Below, one piece after another: positions 3,744 to 14,265 of a stretch of DNA of 64,000 bases. Position 1 is the stretch's first letter. The number at the start of each line of letters is the position of its first letter. The position numbers were made by a program, and so were the translations under genes. The notes beneath the pieces were generated by a model. It saw nothing but the letters and a program-made list of their open reading frames with translations, searched no databases and was not told the origin of the DNA. This stretch comes from a virus, in the IMG/VR virus record IMGVR_UViG_3300045988_183620. One strand, written 5' to 3'.

Positions 3744-3828
3744 TGGCGCTTGTGGTAGGATTCGAACCTACGAGCAGTTTCCTACTTCCGGTTTTCTGGA
3801 CCGGCTCTTTCAGCCTCTCGGACACACA
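3744..3828 (-). tRNA. tRNA, type II (Ser-like), anticodon loop CCAGAAA (anticodon AGA with C33?)
   Basis: Reverse complement shows acceptor GCTTGTG/CACAAGC, D-loop GAGAGGCTGAA, T-arm GTAGG-TTCGAAT-CCTAC, CCA encoded, long variable arm. Position 33 is C. Confidence 0.6.
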
Positions 3829-3834
3829 AGCAAA

Positions 3835-3922
3835 TGGCGCAGAGGGTGAGGCTCGAACTCACATGCCGCTTTCGCGACGGCAGCTTAGCAAGCTGCTGCA
3901 CTACCTATTGTGCGACCACTGC
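3835..3922 (-). tRNA. tRNA-Ser(GCU), type II
   Basis: Anticodon arm GCAGC-TTGCTAA-GCTGC, long variable arm, T-arm GTGAG-TTCGAGC-CTCAC, CCA encoded. One T-T acceptor mismatch. Confidence 0.7.
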
Positions 3923-3985
3923 ATAAAAAGCACCCACATTTTTCTTGAATATCAATTATGTACGTAAGATAACGTAGGTGCGCGT

Positions 3986-4062
3986 TGGTGACCTGCGCGG
4001 GGATTGAACCCGCAACCTTCAGCTTGAGAGGCTGATGACTTAACCTATTCGTCGAGCAGGCC
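3986..4062 (-). tRNA. tRNA-Glu(CUC)
   Basis: Anticodon arm TCAGC-CTCTCAA-GCTGA, T-arm GCGGG-TTCAATC-CCCGC, CCA encoded. Confidence 0.7.
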
Positions 4063-4065
4063 TTA

Positions 4066-4150
4066 TGGTGTGTCGGACTGGATTCGAACCAGTGAACCGT
4101 AACGGAGCGGTTTTACAGACCGTTTGCTTTAACCTCTTGTATACCGACAC
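4066..4150 (-). tRNA. tRNA-Tyr(GUA), type II
   Basis: Anticodon loop CTGTAAA, T-arm CTGG-TTCGAAT-CCAG, perfect 7-bp acceptor, long variable arm. Confidence 0.75.
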
Positions 4151-4173
4151 ATAGAATGAGGCATTAAGCCTCG

Positions 4174-4249
4174 TGGTGCTCCCGGCTGGAGTCGAACCAG
4201 CTGCACGCGGCTCTTCAGACCGCTGCTCTACCAGTTGAGCTACAGAAGC
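4174..4249 (-). tRNA. tRNA-Phe(GAA)
   Basis: 5' GCTTCTGTAGCTCAACTGGTAGAGC, anticodon loop CTGAAGA, T-arm CTGG-TTCGACT-CCAG. Confidence 0.8.
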
Positions 4250-4250
4250 A

Positions 4251-4327
4251 TGGGGACCCGTGAGGAATTCGAATCCTCAACCTTCTCCGTGAAAGGGAGA
4301 TGACTTAACCAATTCGTCGAACGGGCC
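4251..4327 (-). tRNA. tRNA-Glu(UUC)
   Basis: Anticodon arm TCTCC-CTTTCAC-GGAGA; same architecture as the 3986-4062 tRNA. Confidence 0.75.
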
Positions 4328-4355
4328 ATGTTATGCCGTATCATGCGGCGAGGAA

Positions 4356-4577
4356 TTATGCGATAACGAGAATATCGTCGATTTTCACATCCAGTATGGA
4401 GGCTAAAATCACAAGGTTATCAATGGTGGGAAGAGCCGCACCAGCCTGCCATTTGGCAACTGCTTGTGTAGATACACCGAGGGTATCTGCTATGTCTTTA
4501 ACCTTGATGCCAGCCGCTTTGCGGAGTGTTTTAATGTTGGCACCAGTTTGCTGGATGTCGATAGTGGGAATTGTCAT
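4356..4577 (-). CDS. XRE/Cro-like HTH transcriptional regulator embedded in the tRNA array
   Basis: 73 aa; IKTLRKAAGIKVKDIADTLGVSTQAVAKWQ is a typical HTH_3 pattern. Confidence 0.7.
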   Translation of the reverse strand: MTIPTIDIQQTGANIKTLRKAAGIKVKDIADTLGVSTQAVAKWQAGAALPTIDNLVILASILDVKIDDILVIA

Positions 4578-4876
4578 TTGTATGCTGCCTTTCTTTATAC
4601 AGGCAACAAAAAAGCTGCCTGCCGAAATCTCGACAAGCAGCTATGACATGCAGTTATCGTTTAGAAGACGCACCGCATCTGCGCACTGACTGTGTTAGCC
4701 TGTCGAGGAGTATGGGAAATAAAACTGCGTTCATAAGAGCTGAACTCAGATTCATAACTATACTCGGCAAACGACATGGCATTGACAGTATTGCACAGCA
4801 TATTGGGTGTCTCCTTTCTCGTTTCGTTCTGATTCTATTATAGCACGTTTGCATTGAAACGCAATCAACTTGTGGT

Positions 4877-5059
4877 TTACTTTTTGCTGCACCACTTGGC
4901 GGTATCGGGAATGTATACAGCATCCACTCCCTCTTGCTTTGGGCTGGAAGGATTTTCCTTGGTTCCTGGCGGAGATGTCCTGCGTGCCGCCTTGAATTTG
5001 CTGCGGTAGCCTGCACCTTCATACAGCACACGTTCTGAGCCGAGTAATTTGTCGTTCAT
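4877..5059 (-). CDS. hypothetical small protein
   Basis: 60-aa ORF between the tRNA blocks; no recognisable domain. Confidence 0.25.
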   Translation of the reverse strand: MNDKLLGSERVLYEGAGYRSKFKAARRTSPPGTKENPSSPKQEGVDAVYIPDTAKWCSKK

Positions 5060-5117
5060 GGTATACTCCTTTCAAAAACAATGATGAGCATGCACCTTTT
5101 GAGTACATACTCACCGT

Positions 5118-5193
5118 TGGCAGGGGTAACACGACTCGAACATGCAACACGCGGTTTTGGAGACCGCTGCTCTACCACTTGAGCTATACCCCT
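5118..5193 (-). tRNA. tRNA-Trp(CCA)
   Basis: Anticodon arm GCGGT-CTCCAAA-ACCGC, perfect acceptor AGGGGTA/TACCCCT, T-loop TTCGAGT. Confidence 0.8.
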
Positions 5194-5200
5194 ATATAGA

Positions 5201-12247: not shown

Positions 12248-12322
12248 GTAGGAATATTGGAGGAGTATATCGGGGTCGAACCGACGTTATCTGCTTGGAG
12301 GGCAGAGGTATTAACCGTTATA
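12248..12322 (-). tRNA. tRNA-Gly(UCC)-like with C33 (loop CCTCCAA)
   Basis: D-arm GTAT-AACGGTTA-ATAC, anticodon stem TCTGC/GCAGA, T-arm GTCGG-TTCGACC-CCGAT, CCA encoded. Confidence 0.6.
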
Positions 12323-12329
12323 CGAATAC

Positions 12330-13095
12330 TCCACAAGATTGCGGGTGAACCCTCATTTAGCCCCGCCATGATGTTCGTTTAGGAGGTAGTCGGCCCCGAA
12401 CGCCATCTTTACACCACCTGACAATCTTGCGAATCTCATCGTTGACTATGCGTGAGAATCCAAGAGAGTGCTTGGGTGTTGGTCAACTTCAAATTTTGAG
12501 CCCTGTCGTTGATTCCCTGTCAAATCGGGTTAACGGTTGTCGTTGGGCTGTGTGTGAGACTGCGGCGAAACTTACCAGCTGCCGTGCAGTAGTCTCGCCT
12601 ATACGGCTGTGTCGCGTCTGGCTGCGCCCCGGCTTTACGGGGATGCTCGTACGTCTGCATGCTTGATAGGGCGGGATTTGTTGTTTCCGAACCGTAGTTC
12701 GAGAGGAAGCACTCGTCCACACAACTTCCTGGCCTTTAGGGATACCGCTCACACCGGGAGTTGTGATGCGATTCCCACGATTGAAGACTTCGCCATGTCG
12801 CGGGTATTGACCGCAACAATGTTGCCCACTGCTCACCACGAGGAGGTTGTCTTCTGAGCAGTAGCGCGGATTGTGTGGAGCAGTCCGCGCAAGCAGCTTC
12901 CGCGTATTCCCTGCTGCTTGAGGGAGCTTGTTGAGCGTCCGCCGACGTCTAATCTCCGAAGAGAATACCCTGACGGGTACTACAGCAAGAAGCATCGGTT
13001 TTAAGCCGTGATGTTGGGCGCAGACGCTGTATTATCTGTCAGATTTGACCCTCCGAATAGGTTTTTGAGACGATTTGCCAAATGCGAAAAGCATT
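12330..13095 (-). ncRNA. candidate large structured RNA, part 1 (ROOL/GOLLD-like?)
   Basis: About 760 bp with no credible ORF (only Arg-rich overlapping frames) and many GC-rich hairpins (ccccggctttacgggg, gcgcgga...tccgcgc). Being embedded in a mobile-element tRNA array resembles the ROOL and GOLLD RNA families (from memory). Confidence 0.3.
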
Positions 13096-13096
13096 T

Positions 13097-13140
13097 GTTG
13101 TCCACCACCCGCCGCGTGGAGGCTGTCTCATGGGTGGCAG
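13097..13140. repeat. conserved-loop hairpin element, copy D
   Basis: ccaccacc-cgccgcgtggaggctgtctcat-gggtggca. Confidence 0.5.
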
Positions 13141-13495
13141 GGCGCGTCGATAAGAACCGGCGTGCCCTGATAGGCGCTACCTATCGTGATGTTCTAAGGC
13201 GGGAGCTGCCCGCCATCAGGTTTACCTGTGCATCGGATTATCCCTTTCACTTATGCGGCCTGTCGGACGTAATTAGTGCATAGGCGTTCTCCTTTGTTCA
13301 GATTTTGACAGTCGGACGAGAATTACTTCTGCATCGGAGTGCCCTCCCTGTTAGATTTCGACCTGTTTATCGTCCGTGTCAGGACGTGTTCTGGATGGGT
13401 GGTGTCACACCACCGTGTTCCGTGCTTACGCGTCGCACCTGTACTCCACTATTACGCCTTATCGCGCGATTGACGTGTTCCCTTGTACTACATCC
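13141..13495 (-). ncRNA. candidate large structured RNA, part 2
   Basis: Non-coding, with hairpins ggcgggagctgcccgcc and ggtggtgtcacaccacc. Confidence 0.25.
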
Positions 13496-13497
13496 AG

Positions 13498-13574
13498 TGG
13501 CGACTCGTGCCGGTTTCGAACCGGCGACCTCCAGCGTGACAGGCTGGCGTTCTAACCGTCTGAACTAACGAGCC
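13498..13574 (-). tRNA. tRNA-Asp(GUC)
   Basis: Anticodon arm CCAGC-CTGTCAC-GCTGG, T-arm GCCGG-TTCGAAA-CCGGC. Confidence 0.75.
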
Positions 13575-13608
13575 ATATATGGCCGATTTAATGTCGCGGC
13601 CGAGACGA

Positions 13609-13683
13609 TGGATACGGGGATGGGACTTGAACCCACAACCACCAGCGTATGATGCTGGTAAGCTACCATTGCTATACCCCGTG
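13609..13683 (-). tRNA. tRNA-Met/Ile2(CAU)
   Basis: Anticodon arm CCAGC-ATCATAC-GCTGG, T-arm GTGGG-TTCAAGT-CCCAT; C1-A72 mismatch. Confidence 0.65.
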
Positions 13684-13724
13684 TCAATAACAAGACATTG
13701 GCCGCAAGAACCTTCAAAACTTGC

Positions 13725-13766
13725 GTTGTCCATCCCTCGCCACGCGGAGGCTGTCTTGTGAGGGAT
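13725..13766. repeat. conserved-loop hairpin element, copy E
   Basis: atccctc-gccacgcggaggctgtcttgt-gagggat. Confidence 0.5.
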
Positions 13767-13943
13767 TCTCGGAGATTGCGCAAGGATGTGTAAAACTATA
13801 CTGGTGTAGTATGATGTGCTGCAAGCAGCTACAATGCACATTCTCCGAGGTTGTTATTACCGTCTATCAAGTGAGGGTATGTAGCACTATAGTAGTTGTG
13901 ATGTGTGTCGGGATGACACTTACAACACTTGATATTCGGTATA

Positions 13944-14019
13944 TGGCGGGTCGTACAGGGCTCGAACCTGTGACATCTTGATTAACAGTCAAGCGCTCTG
14001 CCGACTGAGCTAACGACCC
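13944..14019 (-). tRNA. tRNA-Asn(GUU)
   Basis: Anticodon arm CTTGA-CTGTTAA-TCAAG, perfect acceptor, T-arm ACAGG-TTCGAGC-CCTGT. Confidence 0.8.
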
Positions 14020-14057
14020 AGAAATAAGACATTTGCCACGGGGAGCTCAATACCCGT

Positions 14058-14096
14058 GTTACCGTCACCGCCGCGAGGAGGCTGTCTTATGGTGAC
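14058..14096. repeat. conserved-loop hairpin element, copy F
   Basis: gtcacc-gccgcgaggaggctgtcttat-ggtgac. Confidence 0.5.
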
Positions 14097-14189
14097 ATAG
14101 CCCGCAAGATGTGTGTATAGCATCGTATCAAGAAGTTACGATTCATCAAGCGGGATTTCGGATTTCAACGGAGGAACGATGAAAACCAG

Positions 14190-14265
14190 TGGAGCTTCCA
14201 ACAGGGCTCGAACCTGCGACCCGCTGCTTACAAAACAGCCGCTCTGCCATCTGAGCTACAGAAGC
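14190..14265 (-). tRNA. tRNA-Thr(UGU)
   Basis: Anticodon arm GCTGT-TTTGTAA-GCAGC, D-arm GCTC-AGATGGCA-GAGC, T-arm GCAGG-TTCGAGC-CCTGT. Confidence 0.75.

Follow-up and report, generated by a model that had tools for sequence, protein, structure and literature searches.

We analyzed a 64,000-nucleotide (nt) stretch of viral DNA, IMG/VR record IMGVR_UViG_3300045988_183620 (the window, meaning this whole stretch at its full length), in which an earlier sequence-only reading had placed two dense arrays of transfer RNA (tRNA) genes between positions 3,744 and 14,265 (Table 1). ARAGORN found 22 tRNA genes in the window, all on the minus strand, with 14 in 3744-5920 (array 1) and 8 in 10213-14265 (array 2), and all 22 also exceeded the 29-bit threshold of the Rfam tRNA model, with scores of 45-72 bits (49-63 bits for the first block of array 1). 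The two methods thus agree with each other and with the count, strand, division and exact limits given by that reading. The isoacceptor duplicates that it had listed were recovered as well, namely Glu (UUC and CUC), Asn (GUU twice, the two copies being identical at 54 of 76 positions), Thr (UGU and CGU) and four Leu (UAA, CAG, AAG and CAA); Ser is also present three times (AGA, GCU and UGA). With Tyr, Phe, Trp, Lys, Gln, Ala, Gly, Asp and Met, the anticodon set amounts to 14 amino acids, and the 3' CCA is encoded in 21 of the 22 genes, the exception being Leu(UAA). The codons readable by these tRNAs make up about 64% of those in the 64 open reading frames (ORFs) of the window; the set reads every Leu and Ser codon, and it has no tRNA for Val, Ile, Arg, Pro, His or Cys. 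Support of phage translation is the most likely role of the tRNAs, and it is plausible that the set supplements or reprograms translation in the host. No suppressor tRNA or recoding signal was seen in the window, where TAG is a rare stop codon (4 of 64 ORFs). Array 2 is more than a tRNA supplement: it contains six ribozymes and at least four conserved structured RNAs, which the sequence-only reading overlooked.

We also made two observations on individual tRNAs. Three of the four tRNA-Leu genes (5199-5276, 5397-5476 and 5505-5581, all on the minus strand) measure only 77-80 nt and lack the long variable arm typical of bacterial tRNA-Leu. In the related loci L137 (10424-10499, plus strand) and L131, the position of tRNA-Ala(UGC) is held by a tRNA-like gene with a 6-nt anticodon loop, labelled tRNA-??? 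with a two-base anticodon by ARAGORN.

Table 1. Features of the two tRNA arrays, and of other elements of the window named in the text, in order of decreasing position.
Feature	Position	Strand	Remarks
Y-family (ImpB/UmuC) DNA polymerase	58529-59812	-	phrog_1268, 6.7e-86
SPFH/flotillin-like protein	52822-54663	-
RzG, HDV-like ribozyme	52713-52784	-	RF02682 47 bits, above gathering score; between two protein genes
RzH, HDV-like ribozyme	50187-50257	-	RF02682 35.9 bits, E 2.9e-4; between protein genes
506-aa protein	39367-40887	-	unannotated
TIR-domain protein	38736-39398	-	Pfam CAP12/Pycsar TIR 2e-23; PADLOC PDC-S35 3.5e-24
RlaP-family RNA-repair nucleotidyltransferase	32608-33615	-
Mor-family transcription activator	28823-29446	-
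Sortase	25175-25948	-
MBL-fold hydrolase	23619-24776	-
Array 2 promoter	14311-14338	-	TTGCCG-16-TATACT, spacer carries TGCGAACCG
tRNA-Thr(tgt)	14190-14265	-	CCA encoded
RzA, HDV-like ribozyme	14025-14096	-	RF02682 29 bits, E 0.015; cleavage site at 14096 side; homolog in 47 loci
tRNA-Asn(gtt)	13944-14019	-	ARAGORN, Rfam
RzB, HDV-like ribozyme	13691-13766	-	RF02682 41.5 bits, E 1.9e-5; descriptor parse
tRNA-Met(cat)	13609-13683	-	ARAGORN, Rfam
tRNA-Asp(gtc)	13498-13574	-	ARAGORN, Rfam
N5, three minigene units	13177-13357	-	180-nt block, conserved in 62 of 80 loci
RzC, HDV-like ribozyme	13066-13138	-	RF02682 37 bits, E 2e-4; free-standing, hairpin abuts cleavage site
RzD, HDV-like ribozyme	12781-12862	-	RF02682 40.6 bits, E 3.1e-5; free-standing
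N1, structured RNA	12333-12664	-	332 nt, up to tRNA-Gly; 82 pairs, 98.8% of cells paired
tRNA-Gly(tcc)	12258-12332	-	ARAGORN, Rfam
Ribozyme relic	12215-12257	-	starts right after tRNA-Gly-CCA; ninth core; keeps P1, P2-5', P3/L3
orf64	12014-12208	-	small Cys-rich ORF, strong ribosome-binding site; only in five closest relatives
N2, structured RNA	11637-11912	-	276 nt, tRNA-Gly to tRNA-Thr(cgt); 63 pairs, 98.5% paired
tRNA-Thr(cgt)	11561-11636	-	ARAGORN, Rfam
N3, structured RNA	11369-11560	-	192 nt, orf130 leader; 54 pairs, 98.8% paired; 64 of 80 loci at ~87.5% identity
orf130	10976-11359	-	127 aa from MEQAIINVEG; 144 viral loci
tRNA-Ala(tgc)	10870-10945	-	ARAGORN, Rfam
N4, structured RNA	10645-10869	-	225 nt, 3' end = predicted RzE cleavage site; 54 pairs, 97.8% paired
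RzE, HDV-like ribozyme	10573-10644	-	RF02682 36.3 bits, E 3e-4
sp9, spacer between RzE and RzF	10380-10572	-	apparent tandem duplicate of N4 3' part; full length in only 5 loci
RzF, HDV-like ribozyme	10306-10379	-	RF02682 45.3 bits, above gathering score
tRNA-Ser(tga)	10213-10301	-	ARAGORN, Rfam
Array 2 final terminator-like hairpin	10189-10205	-
HD_4 (RelA/SpoT-type) phosphohydrolase	9428-10162	-	Pfam HD_4 1.6e-7; phrog_990 6e-49
961-aa protein	6403-9288	-	between the arrays
Promoter of 42-aa ORF	6256-6284	-	TTGACT-17-TATAAT
42-aa hydrophobic ORF	6089-6217	-	strong ribosome-binding site
Array 1 candidate extended -10 promoter	5938-5947	-	TGTATATAAT, ~18 nt upstream of tRNA-Gln; read in sequence
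Array 1 first block, eight tRNAs	5118-5920	-	ARAGORN, Rfam
tRNA-Gln(ttg)	5847-5920	-
tRNA-Lys(ttt)	5692-5767	-
tRNA-Asn(gtt)	5585-5660	-
tRNA-Leu(caa)	5505-5581	-
tRNA-Leu(aag)	5397-5476	-
tRNA-Leu(cag)	5305-5391	-
tRNA-Leu(taa)	5199-5276	-
tRNA-Trp(cca)	5118-5193	-
Terminator-like hairpin	5083-5115	-	directly 3' of tRNA-Trp
125-aa ORF	4654-5031	-	no family match; 3' half conserved in ~60 loci
Terminator-like hairpin	4613-4642	-	3' of 125-aa ORF
XRE-type helix-turn-helix gene	4356-4577	-	73 aa; Pfam HTH_3 1.6e-11; conserved in ~61 loci
Array 1 second block, six tRNAs	3744-4327	-	ARAGORN, Rfam
tRNA-Glu(ttc)	4251-4327	-
tRNA-Phe(gaa)	4174-4249	-
tRNA-Tyr(gta)	4066-4150	-
tRNA-Glu(ctc)	3986-4062	-
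tRNA-Ser(gct)	3835-3922	-
tRNA-Ser(aga)	3744-3831	-
Array 1 final terminator-like hairpin	3720-3741	-
466-aa protein	655-2055	-	C-terminal HD domain

HDV-like ribozymes and their placement

The structured elements that the sequence-only reading had mentioned in array 2 without naming them are real, and Rfam and a descriptor search identify them as HDV-like ribozymes (HDV, hepatitis delta virus). Array 2 contains six intact ribozymes (RzA to RzF) and one decayed copy, and two further intact copies (RzG and RzH) lie elsewhere in the window. The eight intact copies are full-model matches, on the strand of the tRNAs, to Rfam model RF02682 (Faecalibacterium-type HDV-like; gathering score 44 bits). 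Each of the eight intact copies has P1, P2, P3 and the P4 hairpin in canonical order together with a J4/2 GGC bearing the catalytic cytosine, and for RzA, the lowest-scoring copy, the descriptor parse gives P1, P2, P3 and the J4/2 C. We counted nine copies of the core CCTYCNCGNGG in the window, every one on the minus strand, compared with 0.58±0.75 expected (0 of 100 shuffles). Across the copies of the window the sequences of P1 and P2 vary and pairing is kept, and the same holds in the related loci, over 80 of which most of our counts of geometry and conservation were made: their 73 unique ribozymes contain 26 distinct P1 and 29 distinct P2 helices, all of which pair. The catalytic base had been left free in the scan and was C in 89 of 103 unique matches. 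Family members were found with a descriptor scanner, a MAFFT-based covariance model having been abandoned because the variable P4 was misaligned; the scanner missed RzH, whose J4/2 reads GGCAGA and which Rfam confirmed. P4 hairpins in the window measure about 10-30 nt, and some relatives have ribozymes of 143-151 nt, implying a very long P4 insertion (L087, 8869-9012, and L131, 9144-9294, both on the plus strand). The decayed copy can be aligned with the intact ribozyme found after tRNA-Gly-CCA in locus L086; in the decayed copy, the ribosome-binding site and start codon of orf64 have taken the place of the 3' half with the catalytic region. From these sequence features we infer that the intact ribozymes would self-cleave, both in array 2 and between protein cistrons.

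Three of the ribozymes directly precede a tRNA: RzA by 5 nt (tRNA-Asn), RzB by 7 nt (tRNA-Met) and RzF by 4 nt (tRNA-Ser(UGA)). Since HDV-like ribozymes cut at their own 5' edge, RzA, RzB and RzF would stay on the tRNA as a 5' leader. In the 80 related loci, all 267 full ribozymes lie on the tRNA strand, and 114 of them are followed by a tRNA at a distance of 4-8 nt (Asn 47, Ser-UGA 40, Thr-UGU 18, Met 5). A tRNA-first layout is seen for 41 of the 267, in which the ribozyme begins at the base after a tRNA-Thr(UGU) lacking CCA (gap 0). In the window, the tRNA 3' end nearest upstream of any of the eight intact ribozymes is 93 nt away. The linkers between ribozyme and tRNA are U-rich (tctctt, ttctt, attt and similar), with nearly always a U at -1, the base preferred there by bacterial RNase P, and the ribozyme-tRNA modules are about 95% identical across 47 loci. 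On the other side of the ribozyme, 87.5% of unique upstream flanks contain a hairpin whose end lies 0-4 nt ahead of the cleavage site, compared with 54-63% of random or shuffled controls, and these flanks fold at -12.5 kcal/mol versus about -8 to -9 kcal/mol in controls. RzG and RzH share a context consisting of a stop codon, a GC-rich hairpin, the ribozyme and then the ribosome-binding site of the next gene, a sequence arrangement which suggests that the phage may separate protein cistrons by the same ribozyme device. Finally, one subgroup of relatives has a ribozyme that ends exactly at the first base of the structured RNA N1 described below, so that the leader arrangement applies to a non-coding RNA (ncRNA) as well as to tRNAs.

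Structured RNAs, minigenes and genes of array 2

The long non-coding stretches that had been noticed in array 2 include four conserved structured RNAs, N1 to N4, with folds supported by covariation. We assessed this support by comparing the number of pairs changed on both sides with that in shuffled alignments (500) and in slid alignments. N1 has 20 such pairs (shuffles 13.5±1.6, 0 of 500; slid 2-6), N2 has 9 (shuffles 5.4±1.5, 5 of 500; slid 0-2) and N4 has 8 (shuffles 3.3±1.4, 0 of 500; slid 0-2). N1-N4 are conserved to about the same degree as the tRNAs and the protein gene orf130. A coding role was considered for them and rejected: none of the four shows codon periodicity, and every sequence of N1 and N2 is interrupted by stops in each of the three frames, frameshifting indels being predominant. 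When 10150-14350 was searched with the 4227 models of Rfam 15 (E up to 10), only tRNAs and HDV-like ribozymes were matched and N1-N4 were not. We therefore rejected N1 as an RNase P RNA, transfer-messenger RNA (tmRNA), group I intron, GOLLD/ROOL or other known large RNA on the basis of this Rfam search, and ARAGORN found no tmRNA. At least 119 viral contigs, and no reference genome, contain an invariant 31-mer of N1. In 92 of 92 usable contigs N1 has tRNA-Gly(UCC) after it, the tRNA beginning about 330 nt after the N1 start.

Between tRNA-Asp and RzC lies N5, a block of three minigene units. Each unit consists of a Shine-Dalgarno-like motif, 6-9 nt, ATG, one or two codons and a stop, and across loci the starts and stops are kept while the codons change. 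Unit 1 reads ATG-CAG-(AAG)-TAA, unit 2 reads ATG-CAC-TAA, and unit 3 takes the form ATG-CAC-AGG-TAA, ATG-TAC-TGA or ATG-ATG-TAA.

Array 2 also has a characteristic promoter. The sequence-only reading had placed a motif-type promoter near 14320, and one is indeed present at 14338-14311. There are eight exact copies of the 9-mer TGCGAATTG in the window, on the minus strand only (first bases 54735, 47633, 43344, 32386, 23435, 19787, 19238 and 16148), with a variant at 14327. Seven of the eight exact sites lie in a sigma-70-like spacer upstream of genes, TTGnnn-N5-TGCGAATTG-NN-TAnAAT, and the array 2 promoter has the matching architecture TTGnnn-N5-TGCGAAnnG-NN-TAnAAT. Because of this shared spacer architecture, array 2 appears to be driven by what looks, from its sequence, like a phage-specific promoter class (or regulator site).

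Of the three small protein genes attributed to array 2 beforehand, orf130 and orf64 are credible and the third is not, the other ORFs overlapping tRNAs or ribozymes. orf130 is the sole protein gene conserved inside the operon. Its homologs (n=93) are confined to this phage lineage, none being named and none having a consistent Pfam domain, and an AlphaFold2 model from 25 sequences had a mean predicted local distance difference test score of 52, too poor for a fold search. orf64 is a lineage-specific insertion, and sp9 is, to judge from its sequence, a lineage-specific duplicate. The HD_4 gene lies immediately downstream of array 2 and is conserved alongside it in 62 loci.

A processing model and its alternatives

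We propose to read array 2 as a composite operon whose RNA processes itself, with ribozymes and RNase P freeing tRNAs, ncRNAs and a small mRNA; we consider this reading fairly probable. The parts of this model that were established directly are the order and strand of the elements, the tRNAs, the ribozyme fold with its catalytic C, the geometry, and the conservation and covariation of N1-N4. The promoter and the terminator that bracket array 2 (14338-14311 and 10205-10189) suggest that it would be transcribed as one precursor carrying eight tRNAs, six ribozymes, N1-N4, the three minigenes and two small ORFs. During transcription, each ribozyme would cut at its own 5' edge (predicted sites 14096/7, 13766/7, 13138/9, 12862/3, 10644/5 and 10379/80), leaving the RNA upstream with a hairpin-capped end and a 2',3'-cyclic phosphate. 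Host RNase P would cut the 5' end of every tRNA and so remove the leader ribozymes. For a ribozyme 4-8 nt before a tRNA, the two cuts would yield an exact 3' end upstream and a mature tRNA 5' end, with the ribozyme discarded. The same scheme predicts the ends of the other products. N1 would receive its 5' end from RzD and its 3' end from RNase P at tRNA-Gly, and in the window RzD and about 116 nt would remain attached to its 5' end. N2 would run from 3' processing of tRNA-Gly to the RNase P cut at tRNA-Thr, the N3-orf130 mRNA from 3' processing of tRNA-Thr to the RNase P cut at tRNA-Ala, and N4 from 3' processing of tRNA-Ala to RzE. The excised RNAs may then be stable or functional. In a stronger version, array 2 would be primarily a self-dicing ncRNA operon and not a tRNA supplement, with tRNAs (through RNase P) and ribozymes as its processing signals, with N1-N4, specific to this phage lineage, and the triple-minigene RNA acting in trans and N1 as an obligate partner of tRNA-Gly(UCC); this we hold only tentatively, at a little under an even chance.

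Two units of array 2 run from one ribozyme to the next (13138-12863, 276 nt, and 10644-10380, 265 nt, both on the minus strand), and their predicted ends are a 5'-OH and a 2',3'-cyclic phosphate. It is conceivable that an RtcB-type ligase, which joins such ends, makes circular RNAs from them.

Several points weigh against the self-processing model. Only two of the eight intact ribozymes (47 and 45.3 bits) pass the RF02682 gathering threshold, and the other six score below it (29-41.5 bits). N3 is the weakest of the four structured RNAs, with 6 double-sided pairs versus 4.4±0.9 in shuffles (43 of 500; slid 0-2), and the significance from shuffling is inflated by closely related sequences in the alignments, against which the slid controls guard only partly. 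A ribozyme is dispensable for 5' maturation of a tRNA, so that any benefit of the ribozyme-then-tRNA order is something we infer. The ribozyme-released spacers sp1, sp2 and sp4 are conserved only in the closest relatives, and not every excised piece is therefore likely to be functional. Ribozymes have been gained and lost between relatives, with one relic in the window, which also fits partial dispensability. Lastly, no virion gene was recognised among the proteins of the 64-kb window, so that the term phage rests on IMG/VR membership, PHROG matches and contig size.

Alternatively, the two arrays might be a plain tRNA supplement matched to phage codons, with ribozymes that replace host nucleases in processing tRNA ends and other RNAs that are passive spacers or untranslated regions. 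Such a supplement would fit the codon coverage of the 22 tRNAs (about 64% of window codons, all Leu and Ser codons), the poor conservation of some spacers, the lack of ribozymes and long conserved spacers in array 1, and the published layout found in relatives, in which the ribozyme forms the tRNA 3' end. Passive spacers, however, would not be expected to match the tRNAs and the protein gene in conservation, or to keep covarying helices, and the link of N1 to tRNA-Gly in 92 of 92 contigs also argues against this explanation. Moreover, no intact ribozyme of the window forms a tRNA 3' end, where CCA is already encoded in 21 of 22 cases, and two ribozymes lie between protein genes, far from tRNAs; we regard a plain supplement as unlikely. 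The variation of ribozyme number and position among relatives, the truncated window copy and the lineage-specific tandem duplication RzE-sp9-RzF could also mean that the ribozymes are selfish or decaying passengers that have spread through non-coding phage DNA with no operon-level function. This seems very improbable given that all 267 copies are on the transcribed strand, that helices covary and the catalytic C is retained, that 114 copies keep tightly to a distance of 4-8 nt from the downstream tRNA, across conserved U-rich linkers, and that the ribozyme-tRNA modules are so similar (about 95% identity) across 47 loci.

Two further alternatives concern the role and origin of the whole element. 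Phage tRNAs are known to counter anticodon nucleases, and the locus might be a counter-defence cassette, compatible with self-processing, in which tRNAs replace cut or modified host tRNAs, HD hydrolases repair 3' ends and ncRNAs act as decoys. The HD_4 gene conserved together with array 2 in 62 loci, a second HD-domain protein downstream of array 1 and the RlaP-family RNA-repair nucleotidyltransferase are consistent with such a cassette; the argument is one of gene neighbourhood, however, and nothing ties these enzymes to tRNAs, which makes this role distinctly unlikely. As for origin, the lack of a recognised virion gene would suit an ordinary chromosomal or plasmid-borne tRNA operon that is not from a phage. 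Against this, Rfam finds no rRNA in the 64-kb window, plasmid matches are confined to the tRNA-Ala gene (about 85 bp), the N1 motif and relatives of orf130 were both absent in two scans of 185,579 reference genomes, and IMG/VR viral contigs of up to 389 kb (some 240-389 kb) carry more than 140 related loci, 62 being retrieved with the HD_4 gene and 144 with orf130. Many window proteins match PHROG families, and those with matches to phage protein families include the Y-family DNA polymerase, a UvrD-like helicase, a nucleotidyltransferase, an AAA ATPase and an HD phosphohydrolase. A non-phage operon is thus scarcely credible, and the sequence-only reading was right to see a large phage with a big tRNA complement: the two outcomes it had named as speaking against one, few real tRNAs or a chromosomal tRNA/rRNA operon, are both excluded by the 22 tRNAs found with two methods, the lack of rRNA and the viral relatives. 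That the element is part of a large uncultivated gut phage is well supported, if not proven from the window alone. Among deposited phages we found no close relative; at the DNA level only tRNA-Trp matches, and orf130 is unmatched. The nearest relatives of the MBL-fold protein (35-44% identity) are in Bacillota and human-faecal phages. The host is probably a member of the Bacillota, and a sortase gene and a lipoprotein signal fit a Gram-positive host.

If the self-processing model is true, the roles of small ribozymes would extend from tRNA 3' ends to general operon punctuation, including between protein genes. It would also yield new candidate phage ncRNAs and compact natural ribozyme-tRNA modules that could be put to a direct test and reused in RNA engineering. 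Should the self-dicing version hold, the ribozyme as tRNA leader would be a natural counterpart of engineered ribozyme/tRNA guide-RNA arrays.

Surroundings and comparison with known systems

Array 1 is an ordinary, compact cluster of phage tRNAs into which a 125-amino-acid (aa) ORF and an XRE gene are set, and it contains no ribozymes and no long conserved spacers. The XRE regulator gene and the downstream terminators described by the sequence-only reading were both found, the latter as terminator-like hairpins directly 3' of the last tRNA of each array (3741-3720 and 10205-10189). The extended -10 that it had placed near 5940 is present in the sequence, and a two-hexamer scan did not score it. 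The 330 nt upstream of array 1 were considered as a further ncRNA and rejected, as a promoter (6284-6256), a 42-aa ORF and a terminator-like hairpin lie there; this small hydrophobic ORF stands just upstream of array 1, and its promoter is the best sigma-70-like one of the region. Between the arrays, the 961-aa protein combines a lipoprotein signal peptide with low-complexity linkers and some 19 Cys-rich repeats, each about 45 aa long (GHxWDxGxVTxxPTCTExG...), and it has no PDB, PADLOC or meaningful Pfam match. We rejected it as an RNA-guided or RNA-binding partner of the ncRNAs because of its lipoprotein signal and Cys-rich repeats.

Other genes of the window encode unusual cargo, including the sortase, the SPFH/flotillin-like protein, the Y-family DNA polymerase and the Mor-family transcription activator. 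A TIR-domain protein adjoins the gene of an unannotated 506-aa protein, and the pair looks defence-like or anti-defence. The MBL-fold hydrolase and the 466-aa protein are, like the RlaP-family protein, candidates related to RNA ends, and it is speculation that these three proteins are linked to the cyclic-phosphate ends made by ribozymes.

Both tRNA arrays and this ribozyme class are already known, as are tRNA-linked HDV-like ribozymes. In the sources that we searched, the ribozyme-leader layout, the four structured RNAs, the N1-tRNA-Gly unit and the minigene triplet appear to be undescribed. The closest known case is that of theta ribozymes, the tRNA-associated minimal HDV-like ribozymes of gut Caudoviricetes, whose cleavage site lies within ±5 nt of the tRNA 3' end and whose tRNAs encode CCA in 4.5% of cases (Kienbeck et al. 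2024, PMC10879173). Here too, HDV-like ribozymes lie within gut-phage tRNA clusters on the strand of the tRNAs, and the published tRNA-first layout occurs in the window's relatives (41 copies, after tRNA-Thr(UGU) without CCA). In the window, by contrast, RzA, RzB and RzF are 5' leaders of tRNAs, the reverse of the published order, CCA is encoded in 21 of 22 tRNAs, and the ribozymes have a normal P4 hairpin, which is very long in some relatives. None of the eight intact copies has its cleavage site within ±5 nt of a tRNA 3' end, a position found only for the inactive relic and the 41 copies of the relatives, and by this operational definition the eight are therefore not tRNA-associated theta ribozymes. 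The text of the theta-ribozyme paper does not mention a ribozyme-leader layout, nor does it contain the words "upstream" or "leader" (PMC10879173).

The best Rfam family for all eight copies, over their full length, is that of drz-Fpra-1 from Faecalibacterium prausnitzii (RF02682). The founder lies upstream of glmM in a bacterial genome (PMC6765202), whereas the copies described here are in a phage tRNA operon and between phage genes. A leader position is known from the R2 and L1Tc retroelements, whose RNAs have at their 5' end an HDV-like ribozyme that frees the downstream RNA from an upstream co-transcript and stays attached to it (PMC6765202). The conservation of the ribozyme together with its downstream RNA is common to both cases; here, however, it is a tRNA or ncRNA that lies downstream, the ribozyme should afterwards be taken off by RNase P, and there is no retroelement.

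The N5 units follow the pattern of the bar minigenes of phage lambda, which are likewise phage-encoded and consist of a Shine-Dalgarno sequence, AUG, one or two codons and a stop. This likeness is one of sequence pattern alone, and N5 differs in having three tandem units inside a tRNA operon and other codons. RNAC and RNAD of phage T4 are located inside the T4 tRNA cluster and are released by RNase P. They are small stable phage RNAs of unknown function encoded alongside tRNAs (PMC9697503). N1-N4 are likewise non-tRNA RNAs encoded with phage tRNAs, but they have no detectable sequence or Rfam similarity to the T4 RNAs, are larger (192-332 nt), and would be processed with the participation of ribozymes. 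Finally, the proposed scheme recalls mitochondrial tRNA punctuation, in which tRNAs flank other RNAs and supply the sites for RNase P and 3' processing. The tRNAs of array 2 flank other RNAs as proposed processing sites in the same way, with the differences that this is a phage in a bacterium and that its ribozymes would add a second, enzyme-independent punctuation.

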